A DNA stretch of 21,211 nucleotides, taken from the IMG/VR virus record IMGVR_UViG_2778261510_000015, positions 1-21,211 of that record; one strand, written 5' to 3'. The notes under the pieces are model-generated. The model was not told where the DNA came from, made no database searches, and saw nothing but the letters and a program-made list of their open reading frames with translations. The translations under genes and the position numbers were made by a program. Each line of letters begins with the position of its first letter. The stretch's first letter is position 1. Below are positions 4,292-17,399 of this stretch, one piece after another. The DNA comes from a virus. Lineage: Duplodnaviria > Heunggongvirae > Uroviricota > Caudoviricetes.

Positions 4292-4708
4292 TCACTCTCC
4301 TTTGATGCGAATGCCTGTTGCAATGCTGTTTATGATGCTGTCAGTGCATGGGGTAGAAAGCTGGGCATCTCCAGCAATTCTCATGACCTCAACATCTGCA
4401 TATCGAATACCGAGGTGTATCAGACCGGCTATACCTGACTTAAGCCGAGCATTTTCCATAAACAGATCCTTTGCCCGCTGTTTTTCTGCCTCAAGCTCAA
4501 CGCGCAACTTTCCTACCGTTAACGCAATATCCTCGTTCTCTTGGTCGCGGCGTTTGATGTATTGCTGGTTTCTTTCCCGTTCATCCAGCAGTGCCAGCAC
4601 AACCTGAGGTGTGACTTTCATACGAAATGCCAGCAATTTTTGAGGCGTTGCTACTGTTTCAATTGCTACTGCCGCCTCACGCAGTGCCTGAGAGTTAATT
4701 TCGCTCAC
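4292..4708 (-). CDS. Ea22-like protein (138 aa)
   Basis: N-terminus MSEINSQALREAA... and C-terminus ...GIRIKGE match recalled lambda Ea22 ends; central part differs and is shorter. Confidence 0.65.
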   Translation of the reverse strand: MSEINSQALREAAVAIETVATPQKLLAFRMKVTPQVVLALLDERERNQQYIKRRDQENEDIALTVGKLRVELEAEKQRAKDLFMENARLKSGIAGLIHLGIRYADVEVMRIAGDAQLSTPCTDSIINSIATGIRIKGE

Positions 4709-5663: not shown

Positions 5664-6340
5664 CGCCATTGCTCCCCAAATACAAAACCAATTTCAGCCA
5701 GTGCCTCGTCCATTTTTTCGATGAACTCCGGCACCATCTCGTCAAAACTCGCCATGTACTTTTCATCCCGCTCAACCACGACATAGTGCAGGCCTTCACG
5801 CTTCATACGCGGGTCATAGTTGGAAAAGTACCAGGCATCTTTTCGCGTCACCCACATGCTGTACTGCACCTGGGCCATGTAAGCCGATTTTATGGCCTCG
5901 AAACCACCGAGCCGGAACTTCATGAAATCCCGGGAGGTAAACGGGCATTTCAGCTCAAGGCCGTTGCCGTCACTGCATAAACCATCGGGAGAGCAGGCGG
6001 TGCGCATACTTTCGTCGCGATAGATGATCGGGGATTCAGTAACATTCACGCCGGAAGTGAATTCAAACAGAGTTCTGGCATCGTTCTCGTACTGTTTTCC
6101 CCAGGCCAGCGCCTTAGCATTAACTTCCGGAGCCACACCGGTGCAAACCTCAGCCAGCAGGGTGTGGAAGTAGGACATTTTCATGTCAGGCCACTTCTTT
6201 CCTGAGCGGGGCTTTGCTATCACGTTGTGAACTTCTGAAGCGGTGATGACGCCGAGCCGTAATTTGTGCCATGCATCATCCCCCTGTTCGACAGCTCTCA
6301 CGTCGATCCCGGTACGCTGCAGGATAATGTCCGGTGTCAT
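5660..6340 (-). CDS. exo: Lambda exonuclease (Red-alpha)
   Basis: 226-aa ORF matching recalled lambda Exo. Confidence 0.95.
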
Positions 6341-7122
6341 GCTGCCACCTTCTGCTCAGTGGCTTTCTGTTTCAGGAATCCAAGAGCTTTCACTGCTTCG
6401 GCCTGTGTCAGTTCTGACGATGCGCGAATGTCGCGGCGAAATATCTGGGAACAGAGCGGCAATAAGTCGTCATCCCATGTTTTGTCCAGGGCAATCAGCA
6501 GAGTGTTAATCTCCTGCATGGTTTCATCGCTAACCGGAGTGATGTCGCGTTCCGGCTGACGTTCTGCAGTGTATGCGGTATTTTCGACAATGCGCTCGGC
6601 TTCATCCTTGTCATAGATACCAGCAAATCCGAAGGCGAGACGGGCACACTGAATCATGGCTTTATGCCGTAACATCCGTTTGGGATGCGACTGCCACGGT
6701 CCGATGATTTCTTTGCCTTCTCGGGTTTTGAATGGTTCGCGACGGCACTCATCCATCCACTCGGTAACGCAGATCGGATGATTACGGTCCTTGCGGTAAA
6801 TCCGGCATGTGCAGGATTCATTGTCCTGCTCAAAGTCCATGCCATCAAACTGCTGGTTTTCATTGATGATGCGGGACCAGCCATCAACGCCCACCACCGG
6901 AACGATGCCGTTCTGCTTATCAGGGAAGGCGTAAATTTCTTTCGTCCACGGATTAAGGCCATACTGGTTGGCGACGATCAACAATGCGATGAACTGCGCA
7001 TCGCTGGCATCACCTTTAAATGCCGTCTGGCGAAGAGTGGTGATCAGTTCCTGTGGGTCGACAGAATCCATGCCGACACGTTCAGCCAGCTTCCCTGCCA
7101 GCGTTGCGAGTGCTGTACTCAT
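6337..7122 (-). CDS. bet: Bet (Red-beta) single-strand annealing protein
   Basis: 261-aa ORF matching recalled lambda Bet. Confidence 0.95.
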
Positions 7123-7848: not shown

Positions 7849-8217
7849 TCAGGCGGCCTTGATAGTCATATCATCTGAATCAAATATTCCTGATGTATCG
7901 ATATCGGTAATTCTTATTCCTTCGCTACCATCCATTGGAGGCCATCCTTCCTGACCATTTCCATCATCCCAGTCGAACTCACAAACAACACCATATGCAT
8001 TTAGGTCTTTCGAAATTGCTATAAGCAGAGCATGTTGCGCCAGTATGATTAATACAGCATTTAATACAGAGCCGTGTTTATTGAGTCGGTATTCAGAGTC
8101 TGACCAGAAATTATTAATCTGGTGAAGTTTTTCCTCTGTCATTACGTCATGGTCGATTTCAATTTCTATTGATGCTTTCCAGTCGTAATCAATGATGTAT
8201 TTTTTGATGTTTGACAT
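7849..8217 (-). CDS. ea10: Ea10 (Ssb-like), 122 aa
   Basis: Length, position and sequence consistent with lambda ea10. Confidence 0.85.
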   Translation of the reverse strand: MSNIKKYIIDYDWKASIEIEIDHDVMTEEKLHQINNFWSDSEYRLNKHGSVLNAVLIILAQHALLIAISKDLNAYGVVCEFDWDDGNGQEGWPPMDGSEGIRITDIDTSGIFDSDDMTIKAA

Positions 8218-8399: not shown

Positions 8400-8600
8400 T
8401 CAGGCTGCTTTGTTGTTCTGTTTACCAAGTTCTCTGGCAACCATTGCCGTCGTTCGTATTGCCCATTTATCGACATATTTCCCATCCTCTATTACAGGAA
8501 ACATTTCTTCAGGCTTAACCATGCATTCCGATTGCAGCTTGCATCCATTGCATCGTTTGAATTGTCCACACCATTGATTTGTATCAATAGTCGTAGTCAT
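8400..8600 (-). CDS. ral: Ral, restriction alleviation protein (66 aa)
   Basis: Matches recalled lambda Ral. Confidence 0.9.
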   Translation of the reverse strand: MTTTIDTNQWCGQFKRCNGCKLQSECMVKPEEMFPVIEDGKYVDKWAIRTTAMVARELGKQNNKAA

Positions 8601-8728: not shown

Positions 8729-9037
8729 TTACCTCGCCGTCAGTTGTTTTGATTTCCGGTAGCCTGCCGCGTAAATGGCTACGTTTGGCAGGCAAATACT
8801 TCCACTGCATTCGTCGGTATTTTGGTTACGAATGTTGCCGAGTGATATTGCTTTTTCAGAAAGGCTTAAACGCTTTCTCGGTTCTTCCTGAACAGGTTCC
8901 TCACTGTCTGTGCCGAAGATCGAATCGATGATGTTGCATATAGCATCACGCTCGATAGCCGGCTTTCTGCGCCGCTCATGACGGCGAGTTTTGGCATTTC
9001 CTGCAAATGTTGATTTCCCGTACACGATTACCGCCAT
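8729..9037 (-). CDS. Antiterminator N, P22 gene-24 type (102 aa)
   Basis: Arginine-rich motif GNAKTRRHERRRKPAIERD closely matches the P22 N boxB-binding peptide as I recall it; GGAGG 7 nt upstream of ATG 9035..9037; not lambda N. Confidence 0.8.
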   Translation of the reverse strand: MAVIVYGKSTFAGNAKTRRHERRRKPAIERDAICNIIDSIFGTDSEEPVQEEPRKRLSLSEKAISLGNIRNQNTDECSGSICLPNVAIYAAGYRKSKQLTAR

Positions 9038-9077
9038 GATGACCTCCGTGAAGACACACATGAATGTGTGTTGATGA

Positions 9078-9197
9078 TTATTTGTTTTTGCGCTCCCACA
9101 TCCAGCCATCTACTTCAGACCAGATAGTGAATCCGATGCCGATTGCGAAAGTGATGATTGCCCCACCGAGAATTGGGTTGGTGATAATTTCCAGCAT
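9078..9197 (-). CDS. Small hydrophobic ORF (39 aa, one predicted transmembrane helix) between nutL and N
   Basis: Hand translation MLEIITNPILGGAIITFAIGIGFTIWSEVDGWMWERKNK; GGAG about 11 nt upstream; below track threshold. Confidence 0.4.
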   Translation of the reverse strand: MLEIITNPILGGAIITFAIGIGFTIWSEVDGWMWERKNK

Positions 9198-9395: not shown

Positions 9396-9448
9396 CTGCC
9401 AATCTGTTCCGTTTGGCTTCCAGCGTCCTGCTGATGTGACAATAATGA

Positions 9449-9479
9449 ACCAATAGTTCGATATTATCAAGAACTATTG
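9449..9479. promoter_or_regulatory. Perfect 10-bp inverted repeat CCAATAGTTC-N11-GAACTATTGG in the presumed pL/oL region
   Basis: Read directly; the spacer contains TTGATA on the minus strand; candidate operator or promoter-overlapping binding site. Confidence 0.35.
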
Positions 9480-9645
9480 GTACGAAATTTTGTGATTTAT
9501 TAATGCAGCGAGATATGATTTTGATATATAAGGAAATTTATTTTTGTAAATGCTGCAGAGTGGTCTGTAGTTGGAGGGGGTATTGCTGGTGAGTTGGTTC
9601 GCGGTTTACCACATTTGCGGCTATTAAATATGGGAGGGCGATCGT

Positions 9646-9678
9646 GAGGAAAAGAAAACCCGGCGCTGAGGCCGGGTT
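9646..9678 (-). terminator. Intrinsic terminator in the t_imm-equivalent position
   Basis: 8-bp stem AACCCGGC/GCCGGGTT with 6-nt loop; on the minus strand followed by TTTTCTTTTCC. Confidence 0.6.
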
Positions 9679-9703
9679 CTGGTTCTGTTATCTAACTTAA
9701 GTA

Positions 9704-9832
9704 TCAAGCCGCTTTTTGTGAATGATTGATGTGAGCTTCAAAGTCGCGGCGTAGATTTTGAACGCGCTCTACACATCCGCGCATTTCAGCCAAAAGCTTA
9801 CTAACGGCAGTATAGTCAAACGCTTTAGTCAT
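9704..9832 (-). CDS. Small basic protein (42 aa), unknown function
   Basis: Hand translation MTKAFDYTAVSKLLAEMRGCVERVQNLRRDFEAHINHSQKAA; GAGGGG about 8 nt upstream; starts 14 nt after the stop of the 120-aa gene. Confidence 0.5.
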   Translation of the reverse strand: MTKAFDYTAVSKLLAEMRGCVERVQNLRRDFEAHINHSQKAA

Positions 9833-9846
9833 TTTTTTCCCCTCGT

Positions 9847-10209
9847 TTAAATGTAAGGCTCAACATCAAGGGCTGCTATTGCTGCGCACAATGCGTCAGG
9901 ATCGTCAGCATCGATGGCTTGAGCCAGGTCATTAGCCAGTATAAGTAACTTATCAATGACAGCGATTTCGCTGGTCTTATCAACAAGAAAGTGCGGGATC
10001 AGAGCATTACATACGTCTCTGAATGTCCGTAATTCTGCGACAACGTTCAAGAAGGTAGGATCTTTCTTACGGAGATCCACCAATGGCGCTACTTTAGCTG
10101 TTTTCAGCATTGCGCTAATCTCGCCAATCATTGTTCCATGCAGACGATTAAATTCATCAACAGCTCGGTCATGCAAGCTCTTGTTGATTGGCAATACGTT
10201 TTGAGTCAC
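9847..10209 (-). CDS. Hypothetical protein (120 aa), unknown function, in the rexA/rexB-equivalent slot
   Basis: GTG start with AAGGAG 8 nt upstream; no motif I recognise; acidic C-terminus. Confidence 0.65.
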   Translation of the reverse strand: MTQNVLPINKSLHDRAVDEFNRLHGTMIGEISAMLKTAKVAPLVDLRKKDPTFLNVVAELRTFRDVCNALIPHFLVDKTSEIAVIDKLLILANDLAQAIDADDPDALCAAIAALDVEPYI

Positions 10210-10477
10210 TAACTATACTCCTTATATAGGTGTTCGCCAACAGATTTTCAATATAATTTGGGCGATTTCTGAACAATAAGCACGATTTAGCAATGATTAA
10301 TTGATGTTAAGCACAAATATCTCTACGTCGTACATTTTTAACTATTTATACACATAAAATCTAATAAATGGATATAAACTTTATGATGATTTTTCTCAAT
10401 CGAATTGAATAATGATCTCTATCACATCACCCAAACGTCTCTTCAGGCCACTGGTTACCAGCTATGTGACGATGAAG

Positions 10478-11185
10478 TCACGAACTTTTCAGCCACTCCC
10501 TTGCCTCGATGTCATCCAGATGGCGAGATTGCTTCAGAATACCAGCCACATACTCCACCTTTGCTACTTGATGATAAGGCAACGTTATAGGCCTGTGGTC
10601 CTGGTTAATGCTTGTAAATTGGTATTCTCCATCTCTGTCATAGCCAAGAACCTTAATCATGTTGTGTCCTTCAACGGTTCTGACAAACACCTCATCACCC
10701 GGGAATACTTTGGTGTTAGGCTCAATGAGTACATATTCTCCTGATTTTATTCTGGGCCACATGCTGTCTCCTTTCACACGAAGACCAAAGGCATCTGGAT
10801 CATCGCTATAAATTTTGAGCCACCCATCGCGCTCTTCGGTCATCTCGATGGCACCATCAACACCAAGAATTGCCTCACCAACCACGCGCACTAACCCTTT
10901 TTTTAATTTGCCAACAAATGAAAGAGTATCTTCATCATTCGCTCCATTTAACGAAGTGCCGTGCTGAAGCCAAACAACATCAACGTTTAGAAATTTCGCA
11001 AGCGCATTCATTTTTTCCTGACGCGGTAAAGACTCAGCATTAAACCATTTGCTAACGCCTTTGGACGAAAGAGAAAGGGCACGGGCTATGGCCATCCCCC
11101 TACCATGTTCATCAAGACCAGCTTCTTTACAGGCTTGCGCTAGCCGCTGGGCGAATTCTTTGCGCACTTTTTCATTCTGAACCAT
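10478..11185 (-). CDS. CI-type prophage repressor (N-terminal HTH, C-terminal LexA-like S24 peptidase domain), non-lambda immunity
   Basis: 235 aa; HTH in the first 70 residues; GDSMWP (Ser) and a downstream Lys consistent with S24 autocleavage; sequence is not lambda cI or P22 c2 as I recall them. Confidence 0.85.
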   Translation of the reverse strand: MVQNEKVRKEFAQRLAQACKEAGLDEHGRGMAIARALSLSSKGVSKWFNAESLPRQEKMNALAKFLNVDVVWLQHGTSLNGANDEDTLSFVGKLKKGLVRVVGEAILGVDGAIEMTEERDGWLKIYSDDPDAFGLRVKGDSMWPRIKSGEYVLIEPNTKVFPGDEVFVRTVEGHNMIKVLGYDRDGEYQFTSINQDHRPITLPYHQVAKVEYVAGILKQSRHLDDIEAREWLKSS

Positions 11186-11263
11186 GAGTACGATACTAAA
11201 GCACTTGCAAAAACTTTCAGTTCAACCATAATGCGTACTGAAAGTACGAAAAAGGATATTCCT
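11186..11263. promoter_or_regulatory. oR-equivalent divergent promoter/operator region (pRM leftward, pR rightward)
   Basis: Candidate pR: TTGCAA, 16-17 bp, CATAAT. TAGTAT sits 7 nt upstream of the cI ATG (leaderless-type pRM). Inverted repeat ACTTTCAGT-N12-ACTGAAAGT (11225..11254) brackets the -10; related ACTAAAG at 11198. Confidence 0.5.
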
Positions 11264-11491
11264 ATGCAAAATCTTGATGAGCCGATTAAAGGTGTCGGCA
11301 TCCCTGAAGTTGCGAAGGCTTGTGGAGTTAGCGAAAGGGCTGTCTATAAGTGGCTCAAAAACGGCTTCCTCCCTAAGACTGAGTTTTTTGGGAAAACTAA
11401 ATACGCATCAAAAATCGAAGAGATTTCTGGTGGCAAATATCAAGCAAGCGAAATGCTTGAAATAAGCAAAAAGAACCTTCTGGCTGCATAA
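11264..11491 (+). CDS. cro: Cro-type HTH repressor (75 aa from internal Met)
   Basis: HTH PEVAKACGVSERAVYKWLKNG; AAGGA upstream of ATG 11264; divergent from cI. Confidence 0.8.
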   Translation: MQNLDEPIKGVGIPEVAKACGVSERAVYKWLKNGFLPKTEFFGKTKYASKIEEISGGKYQASEMLEISKKNLLAA

Positions 11492-14097: not shown

Positions 14098-14544
14098 ATG
14101 AAGCAAATATACATGCTTCGCAACGAAGCAATCAGAAACAACGCCATAGACGCAATACTCTCACTTCCGATCGACGACAAGTCACCTCACGAAGTCCACA
14201 TTAAAGAACCAAAGCGGAGCAATCCTCAAAACCGCCTTATGTGGGCGTTATTGCAGGACGTATCGCGTCAGGTGCTTTGGCATGGAGAGAGACTTGCGCC
14301 GGAGGACTGGAAAGACCTGTTCACTGCCCTGTGGCTTAAGACCAAAAAACTGGAGCAACGAAGTGCGCCTGGTATCGACGGTGGCGTTGTTATGCTTGGC
14401 GTGCGTACCAGCAAAATGCGAAAGGCCAGCATGACTGAGCTTATCGAAATCATGTTCTGGTTCGGCTCAGAGCGCAACGTGCGGTGGAGTGATGACTCCC
14501 GGCGAGAGTATGAATGGTCACAACGAAAAGGGAAGGCTGCATGA
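14098..14544 (+). CDS. ninB: NinB/Orf-family recombination mediator (divergent from lambda NinB)
   Basis: 148 aa; shares the NinB core pattern ...QNR.LWA.L.DVSRQV.WHG... with recalled lambda NinB. Confidence 0.75.
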   Translation: MKQIYMLRNEAIRNNAIDAILSLPIDDKSPHEVHIKEPKRSNPQNRLMWALLQDVSRQVLWHGERLAPEDWKDLFTALWLKTKKLEQRSAPGIDGGVVMLGVRTSKMRKASMTELIEIMFWFGSERNVRWSDDSRREYEWSQRKGKAA

Positions 14545-16787: not shown

Positions 16788-17399
16788 ATGGCTAAACCAG
16801 CGCGAAGACGATGTAAAAACGATGAATGTCGGGAATGGTTTCACCCTGCATTCGCTAATCAGTGGTGGTGCTCTCCAGAGTGTGGAACCAAGATAGCACT
16901 CGAACGACGAAGTAAAGAACGCGAAAAAGCGGAAAAAGCAGCAGAGAAGAAACGACGACGAGAGGATCAGAGACAGAAAGATAAACTTAAGATTCGAAAA
17001 CTCGCCTTAAAGCCCCGCAGTTACTGGATTAAACAAGCCCAACAAGCCGTAAACGCCTTCATCAGAGAAAGAGACCGCGACTTACCATGTATCTCGTGCG
17101 GAACGCTCACGTCTGCTCAGTGGGATGCCGGACATTACCGGACAACTGCTGCGGCACCTCAACTCCGATTTGATGAACGCAATATTCACAAGCAATGCGT
17201 GGTGTGCAACCAGCACAAAAGCGGAAATCTCGTTCCGTATCGCGTCGAACTGATTAATCGCATCGGGCAGGAAGCAGTAGACGAAATCGAATCAAACCAT
17301 AACCGCCATCGCTGGACTGTCGAAGAGTGCAGGGCCATCAAGGCGGAGTATCAGCAGAAACTCAAAGACCTGCGAAATAGCAGAAGTGAGGCCGCATGA
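16788..17399 (+). CDS. ninG: NinG (Rap) recombination-associated protein
   Basis: 203-aa ORF matching recalled lambda NinG. Confidence 0.9.

Follow-up and report, generated by a model that had tools for sequence, protein, structure and literature searches.

The stretch of viral DNA analysed here (the window; 21,211 nt, positions 1 to 21,211 of the IMG/VR record IMGVR_UViG_2778261510_000015, Caudoviricetes) carries two small open reading frames (ORFs), here called ORF-A and ORF-B, between the cI repressor gene and N. Both ORFs and their ribosome-binding sites (RBSs), an AT-rich gap between cI and ORF-A, a hairpin with a U-run, and the genes cI and N are all present on the minus strand, just as described in a first-pass annotation of this DNA (Table 1). 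The gap (10210..10477) spans 268 nt and has 32% GC, compared with 46.9% for the window. On the loci compared in this study, the window cassette is shown to be one allele, type 1, of a polymorphic family of two-gene cassettes with a conserved leader (the head) and a conserved terminator (the tail).

The position had been called equivalent to the rexAB slot of lambda, and this is literally correct, since both flanks, the cI 3' end and t_imm, are homologous to lambda. The boundaries were taken from a blastn comparison of the window with lambda, in which only the two flanks matched and not the cassette body, and were confirmed by direct reading of the lambda sequence. On one side, the 28 nt of window 10426..10453 (minus) match the final codons of lambda cI, including its stop codon, at 96.4% identity. 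On the other, 9636..9678 and the 43 nt of lambda from the rexB stop codon onward agree at 97.7% identity; this lambda sequence is t_imm, and its stem, TCAGC loop and CCTCACGATCGCC tail all recur in the window. Because the lambda matches stop at 10426 and 9678, the comparison shows window ~9679..10425 (747 bp) as cassette-specific DNA, standing in for the cI-rexA spacer, rexA and rexB. The cassette is thus a discrete insertion, a mobile accessory module of the moron kind, with boundaries at 10425/10426 and ~9678/9679, ending in a terminator. Two details of the first-pass annotation change as a result. The 268-nt gap is not a single unit: 10210..10425 does belong to the cassette, but the first ~52 nt are flank with a relic of cI. 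In addition, what was taken for the cassette's own terminator is actually lambda t_imm.

The cI relic (..WPEETFG*) lies 25-52 nt past the stop codon of the window's own, unrelated cI. Since a lambda-type relic follows an unrelated repressor gene, the repressor has evidently been swapped while the old junction stayed in place. A locus with the lambda-type repressor was also found: in L004, a cI of lambda type (92% nucleotide identity) is followed by the cassette (98.7%) and then by a lambda-like t_imm/OL/pL region (89%). The window cI is 99% identical to that of the Stx2a phage EH0505 (L003), which has the relic in common with the window and diverges from it just past this point. In EH0505, the slot (L003, 1655..3001) holds a DUF3024 protein (PADLOC candidate PDC-S43, 7e-42) and a 285-aa NYN-like protein, which bears out the earlier suggestion that this is a site of variable cargo. 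The EH0505 record was deposited without annotation.

At the right-hand end of the slot, the hairpin and U-run (9680..9646) fold at -16.7 kcal/mol, with a z score of -2.96 against shuffled sequences. Terminators with the same CCCGGCC..GCGCCGGG stem and other loops are found 3' of the cassette in most lineages. The terminator is therefore best regarded as a conserved part of the slot, its right-hand end, and as a flank held in common with lambda. A sub-threshold Rfam match to isrF over 9653..9838 (minus), covering ORF-B and the terminator, scored 17 bits against a cutoff of 40 bits (E = 0.036) and is probably driven by the terminator. Just downstream of t_imm, at 9442..9492 on the minus strand, an 11-bp inverted repeat, ACCAATAGTTC..GAACTATTGGT, flanks promoter-like hexamers (TTGATA, 17 nt, CATTAT), and the arrangement is presumably the OL/pL of this immunity type.

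Table 1. Positions of the cassette features and of other genes in the window.
Feature	Position	Strand	Details
cI-type repressor, 235 aa, HTH_3 and Peptidase_S24	10478..11185	minus	Pfam PF00717 4.4e-16, PF01381 1.2e-5
Leader (head), 216 nt, 27.8% GC, 12% C	10210..10425	minus	Common to all three body types
Head core	10202..10252	minus	ATTGAAAA-N-TTGnnn-N-CCTATATAAGGAGTATAGTTAGTG-NCCC; two nested sigma-70-like hexamer pairs
P1 (promoter-like)	TTGAAA 10251..10246, TATATA 10228..10223	minus	17 nt between hexamers
P2 (promoter-like)	TTGGCG 10240..10235, TATAGT 10217..10212	minus	17 nt between hexamers
ORF-A, 120 aa, GTG start	9847..10209	minus	Shine-Dalgarno AAGGAG 10223..10218, 8 bases 5' of the start
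Intergenic spacer, 14 nt	9833..9846	minus	Holds the ORF-B Shine-Dalgarno GAGGGG (9844..9839)
ORF-B, 42 aa, net charge ~+2	9704..9832	minus	phrog_12503
Intrinsic terminator, lambda t_imm, right junction (tail)	9636..9680	minus	Stem 9680..9655, then U-run
N (PF25694), downstream of the cassette	8729..9109		Pfam
Genes ending in Ala-Ala	6337..7122, 7849..8217, 8400..8600, 9704..9832	minus	
Genes ending in Ala-Ala	11231..11491, 14098..14544, 16788..17399	plus	

ORF-A and ORF-B are real genes and form a conserved pair. Both are under purifying selection, with ratios of nonsynonymous to synonymous substitution rates (dN/dS) of 0.04-0.17 for ORF-A and 0.07-0.41 for ORF-B. An ORF of 42-44 aa follows ORF-A, at a spacing of 13-20 nt, in 31 of the 31 loci examined. 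Each protein has a full-length match in PHROG: phrog_13858 for ORF-A (6.3e-70, residues 2-120 of 120) and phrog_12503 for ORF-B (1.9e-26, residues 1-42), both families being annotated "unknown function". Homologues were found in Citrobacter, Pantoea, Hafnia, Enterobacter, Serratia, Xenorhabdus and Proteus phage Pm34, the last of which keeps the pair at 52% (ORF-A) and 31% (ORF-B) identity. ORF-B is frequently overlooked by gene callers. For example, in L112, L113, L114 and L116 (~4378..4506) its DNA is there and the gene is uncalled in the public assemblies, so that annotation of the pair is inconsistent. Between the window and L015, the synonymous divergence (dS) is ~1.3 for ORF-A and only 0.14 for ORF-B; either recombination within the cassette or an extra nucleotide-level constraint on ORF-B would account for this.

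The two proteins had been thought to be undescribed, and the searches agree. When 1.84 billion representative proteins were searched exhaustively with a profile, only 36 relatives of ORF-A were recovered, nearly all of 105-130 aa. Neither ORF-A nor ORF-B had a match in Pfam, NCBIfam, PADLOC, PDB or the viral structure libraries; profile and structure searches had been proposed in the first-pass annotation, and they assign neither protein to a known family. A literature search found no paper mentioning these cassettes. The AlphaFold2 model of ORF-A is all-helical (predicted local distance difference test, pLDDT, 82; predicted template modelling score, pTM, 0.72), with helices at 5-40, 51-73, 79-100 and 104-116, and ORF-A is accordingly predicted to be a soluble four-helix protein. 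Its most conserved segments are the C-terminus, AIAALDEKPYI-COOH, and the motifs GEISxML..AKLxP and NPSF; no conserved residues of a catalytic type were seen in the family alignment. A role as a histidine phosphotransfer (Hpt-like) protein, considered for the sequence RLHGTMIGE, was rejected: the histidine is unconserved in that alignment.

For ORF-B, the prediction is one amphipathic helix, after which comes a tail that ends in KAA-COOH. Within type 1, the invariant residues are M1, D6, L14, C20 and the terminal Ala. In all three cassette types described below, the cognate small proteins end in AA, except for one ending in IA, and the Ala-Ala tail persists across very divergent B proteins. 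The last residues of the ssrA tag are recognised by ClpX. By analogy, the ssrA-like Ala-Ala tail of the B proteins suggests a short-lived partner. Two other assignments for ORF-B were tried. A type I toxin was rejected: the peptide is not hydrophobic, and an antisense promoter was looked for and not found. A ribbon-helix-helix fold was considered unlikely, with no Pfam match and an unconserved Gly at the would-be turn; the B proteins of types 2 and 3 resemble one continuous helix.

Other bodies occur between the same ends. Types 2 and 3 were found by searching viral contigs for the DNA pattern of the head core, which gave 70 loci, including 36 with ORF-A relatives (type 1) and ~6 chance matches. 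Type 2 encodes a protein of 113-125 aa with no match to the ORF-A profile and a partner of 40-49 aa with the pattern ..ML.LA.RLNEIV.EM..RK...KAA. Type 2 is the bigger of the families, comprising 80 clusters across the Enterobacterales, all "hypothetical" and none with a Pfam domain. In type 3, the large protein forms a remote branch of the ORF-A family (1e-17 to 1e-21; phrog_13858 7.5e-9) and has a 39-aa partner ending in KKAA. The general layout is thus a four-helix A protein of ~115-125 aa followed by a helical B protein of 39-49 aa, in at least three kinds of cognate pair. Types 2 and 3 are located 165-400 nt downstream of repressor-like ORFs, and in one case (L042) a type-2 body follows the same 235-aa cI as in the window. 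Between types, the nucleotide sequences are homologous from about -240 to +7/+9 (76-97% identity) and again at the terminator, but not in the coding bodies in between. The leader lineages cut across the body types, whereas A and B types are always cognate. Heads and bodies therefore recombine with each other freely, with A and B staying together.

Types 1 and 2 likely have a common fold. The AlphaFold2 model of the type-2 protein (pLDDT 84.5, pTM 0.74; helices 18-52, 57-73, 77-94 and 98-109) has the type-1 topology, and in the models of the two types the motifs PS[FL] and [DN]P[DE] occupy equivalent N-cap positions of the helices.

The cassette also moves between immunity regions. The 747-bp segment was found in 89 of 5,426 complete E. 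coli genomes, always at 100% coverage and ~97.6% identity and in no more than three copies per genome; O26, O103 and O111 strains, together with poultry isolates, make up most of the carriers. Across the type-1 lineages, the upstream gene encodes an S24 repressor in nine cases, all verified with Pfam and including the window's own cI. Eight of the nine are distinct immunity types with 20-26% identity, and the repressor of L006 is 73% identical to the window cI. To judge from these contexts, cassette bodies are swapped behind at least eight unrelated S24 repressors. Identical ORF-A proteins were found behind two different repressors, beside different neighbour genes. Among isolated phages, only Proteus phage Pm34 (type 1) and Klebsiella phage vB_Kpn_RAH1 (type 2) have such cassettes. 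Two type-1 cassettes with head and terminator, L031 (3968..4488) and L032 (1058..1591), have no adjoining repressor. The former lies after structural-looking genes and before Arc-like and antirepressor-like genes, and the latter close to tail-fibre-like genes; both also carry the terminator with the CCCGGCC..GCGCCGGG stem.

The head did not feature in the first-pass annotation, and neither did the promoter-like hexamers over the RBS, the Ala-Ala tail or the polymorphic family. It is kept in lineages whose ORF-A is only 43-50% identical, and 46 distinct leaders were aligned. The head core contains, in addition to the hexamers of P1 and P2, the AAGGAG Shine-Dalgarno (SD) sequence, a palindrome, CTATA-N7-TATAG, and the GTG start (10209). 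The SD falls within the P2 spacer, and the P2 -10 element stops 2 nt before the start codon. P2 has an identical position in 10 of 13 lineages and reads TTGnnn, 16 or 17 nt, then TATAGT, TATAAT or TATGAT. This variation is promoter-like, since TTG, TAT and the final T are invariant and positions 4-5 of the -10 element vary. The predicted P2 start site lies ~3-6 nt inside ORF-A, so that a transcript from P2 would be unable to encode ORF-A and might be of use for ORF-B only. In the upstream part of the leader, no further canonical promoter was found at the scan threshold used.

L030 (3940..4000) is, on its sequence, a natural uncoupling of the promoter-like block from the RBS. A 57-nt insertion parts the head from the ORF-A start codon; the SD in the head has decayed to AAAGAG and the hexamers have improved to TTGATT, 16 nt, TATAAT. 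A relic, TTGACC, marks the former start-codon position, and the new start is ATGACC. Two other readings of the head were rejected. A structured RNA, small RNA or riboswitch finds no support in Rfam (no match of the leader at the gathering score) or in folding (RNAalifold -2.9 kcal/mol; z scores +0.31 and -0.51). A lambda CII-type TTGC-N6-TTGC site does not fit, as the TTG motifs are 11-12 bp apart and not 10.

How might such a cassette operate? In the lysogen, A and B would be made by read-through from the repressor maintenance promoter. The search for a terminator between cI and ORF-A found none, and a Rho-dependent stop is unlikely in the C-poor leader; for these reasons we have moderate confidence in lysogen expression through read-through. 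The transcript would end at t_imm, as the rexAB transcripts of lambda do. In lambda, pLIT makes rexB alone, and the conserved promoter-like element of the head may similarly add a B-only transcript. A, which has no conserved catalytic residues, probably acts by binding a target and not as an enzyme. B would probably pack against A as an additional helix, and would be kept short-lived through its ssrA-like Ala-Ala tail by ClpXP or a similar protease. If the supply or turnover of B changed, for example upon infection or induction, free A would act, following a toxin-antitoxin (TA)-like logic.

The purpose of such a pair may lie in conflict between phages, through exclusion or abortive infection, with A as a non-enzymatic effector and B as its labile partner; our confidence in this part is low. 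That cognate types are shuffled freely behind unrelated repressors speaks for phage conflict rather than for the switch of one prophage, and the defence-candidate cargo of the sister phage EH0505 in the same slot is counted in favour. The account as a whole, a module in the rexAB slot that encodes a lysogen-expressed, non-enzymatic, TA-like pair serving in phage conflict, is the one we favour, and we hold it tentatively, at somewhat short of probable. Bolder, and on balance doubtful, is the proposal that the cassettes form an unrecognised polymorphic class of prophage conflict systems, with at least three A/B types, head and tail as handles for allele swapping, and a four-helix effector timed by proteolysis of its Ala-Ala partner.

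Several observations weigh against this account. The cassette proteins have no homology to known defence, toxin or antitoxin families: in PADLOC-DB v2, ORF-A and ORF-B matched no families at E<=10, and the proteins of types 2 and 3 matched none at E<=1. Nor is ORF-B alone in having an Ala-Ala tail, as 7 of the 43 putative genes in the window end in this way (~0.4 expected), and ORF-B ends in KAA where the canonical tag has LAA. The search pattern required the head core, so that head invariance in that set is partly by construction; in the unbiased, protein-based set, the head block was present in most lineages, with Pm34 and L038 differing. Profile comparison of types 1 and 2 gave probabilities of 1.6% for the large and 14% for the small proteins, and homology between them is not demonstrated. 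Finally, a transcript from the predicted P2 start site would lack the start codon of ORF-A, and a simple model in which the cassette has its own promoter does not sit easily with this.

The Ala-Ala enders in the window include a RecT-family recombinase (..QKVAA), a DUF2528 protein (..TIKAA), Ral (..NNKAA), a Cro-like protein (..NLLAA) and NinB (..KGKAA), and ssrA-like C-terminal degrons may be common among the early proteins of this phage.

The nearest precedents come from the same region. The stretch between cI and N is a recognised mosaic hotspot that is expressed in the lysogen and holds rexAB and bstA (PMC8585504). The cassette resembles rexA-rexB of lambda, genes for exclusion or abortive infection that the lysogen expresses, in its identical slot, its homologous flanks and its two genes on the cI strand. 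The resemblance would extend to expression, in that transcription presumably starts at the repressor promoter and stops at t_imm, and an internal promoter may serve the second gene only. It differs in that the candidate internal promoter lies at the 5' end of the first gene and not, as pLIT does, near the second. The proteins also differ: at 120 and 42 aa they are far smaller than RexA (279 aa) and RexB (144 aa), they have no Pfam, PHROG or PADLOC match to the Rex families, and no long hydrophobic segment was seen in them, unlike RexB, which is reported to be an ion channel (PMC8585504). The BstA system of the Salmonella prophage BTP1 is located downstream of the repressor, expressed in the lysogen and followed by a Rho-independent terminator (PMC8585504). 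It has in common with the cassette the cI-N hotspot, the terminator and a conserved DNA element over the upstream region and first codons, whereas BstA is a single large protein and the cassette proteins match no PADLOC model. The cassette is also like the morons of lambdoid phages in being a sharp-edged insertion with an atypical leader composition, a 3' terminator and a 5' promoter-like element. It differs in keeping its head and tail across several unrelated bodies, as would a cassette-exchange system and not a one-off insertion.

Among the alternatives, an improbable one is that the cassette modulates the lysis-lysogeny switch of its own prophage, for instance by tuning the S24 repressor's RecA-dependent self-cleavage or by setting when induction takes place. 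In lambda, an influence of RexA on the switch has been proposed. The cassette lies directly 3' of a cleavable, LexA-type S24 repressor in nearly every context, counting the nine Pfam-verified type-1 cases and a repressor-like ORF upstream of most type 2 and 3 cassettes, and co-transcription would tie its dosage to the repressor level. However, one allele, with proteins 97-100% identical, is paired with repressors of 20-26% mutual identity, and it therefore cannot recognise a specific repressor or operator. A conserved host target such as RecA is hard to square with the exchange of three divergent types behind the same repressor, and the cassettes of L031 and L032 lie away from any repressor.

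It is rather unlikely that the pair modulates the nucleoid or the host in the manner of TomB-Hha, with B perhaps acting on H-NS, tuning the silencing of AT-rich DNA or host traits. TomB-Hha and YmoB-YmoA make up a toxin-antitoxin system that depends on oxygen (PMC5155140). The gene order, a helical protein of ~120 aa and then a small protein, mirrors tomB-hha, and the AT-rich leader (27.8% GC) is typical of H-NS targets. The invariant Cys of the type-1 B proteins recalls the functionally key Cys of Hha (PMC5155140), but the B proteins of types 2 and 3 have no conserved Cys, and B has 42 aa where Hha has 72. Two type-2 B proteins had sub-threshold matches to the H-NS N-terminal family PF22470 (E = 0.0045 and 0.022); profile comparisons with TomB, Hha and H-NS of E. 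coli K-12, however, gave probabilities of 0.2-2%, and no Pfam match to the TomB or Hha families appeared even at E<=1. Helical bundles match promiscuously in any case. Outright membership in TomB/Hha, a type VII TA system, was rejected (hhalign 0.2-0.9% against the K-12 proteins) and survives only as a fold-level analogy for type 2: there is a weak fold resemblance of type 2 to TomB/YmoB without sequence support, and YmoB is outside the top 60 matches of the type-1 model. Mimicry of the H-NS N-terminus by B was likewise rejected, since the Pfam matches are sub-threshold and confined to type 2 and hhalign gave 0.5% and 2% against K-12 H-NS. The genetic settings also differ, a prophage-borne and polymorphic locus as opposed to a chromosomal core locus, with no sequence or profile homology between the two.

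The head could instead be mainly a DNA element, for self-immunity or as a recombination site, rather than a promoter, although we consider this unlikely. Its nucleotide conservation crosses the start codon (GTG-NCCC, independent of the residue encoded) to +7/+9 and then ends abruptly; it includes spacer bases that a promoter would not require to be invariant, and there is no RNA structure to explain it. The aba element of bstA, which acts as DNA, offers a model, as it similarly covers upstream DNA and the start of the gene (29 bp of the former and 34 bp of the latter; PMC8585504). On the other hand, the pattern of variation fits sigma-70 hexamers, the hexamers in L030 survive uncoupling from the start codon, and recent recombination could by itself give high identity.

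A purely selfish addiction module, which would stabilise the prophage or the cassette through TA logic with no anti-phage defence, is less probable still. As in type II TA systems, there is a small bicistronic cognate pair with a putatively labile small partner that may be tagged for proteolysis, and the unit is mobile, swappable and polymorphic; the 5' palindrome and promoter-like element could serve in autoregulation. In contrast to those systems, no known toxin or antitoxin fold or family is represented, the fold being a generic helical bundle, the large protein is without conserved catalytic residues, and the small partner is encoded downstream and has no recognisable DNA-binding domain. 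The use of the slot for defence cargo and the diversification into cognate types fit phage conflict at least as well. That ORF-A and ORF-B are chance open frames in a non-coding spacer, as the shortness and frequent non-annotation of ORF-B and the GTG start of ORF-A might suggest, is refuted by the conservation data (dN/dS well below 1, full-length PHROG matches, a pair kept across genera) together with the confident AlphaFold2 model, and is next to impossible.

Few parts of a lambdoid prophage are transcribed as highly as the region between cI and N, where rexAB and bstA were discovered. In many prophages of the Enterobacterales, this slot holds an uncharacterised family of tiny two-gene cassettes, the hosts including Shiga-toxin-producing E. 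coli of types O26, O103 and O111, Klebsiella, Salmonella and Serratia. With conserved ends and interchangeable bodies, the head sequence provides a simple handle for finding more alleles. If the role in defence or exclusion that we favour is true, these cassettes would add a compact, non-enzymatic mechanism, possibly timed by proteolysis, to the repertoire of prophages. If they are regulators instead, they would be relevant to the tuning of hosts by prophages.

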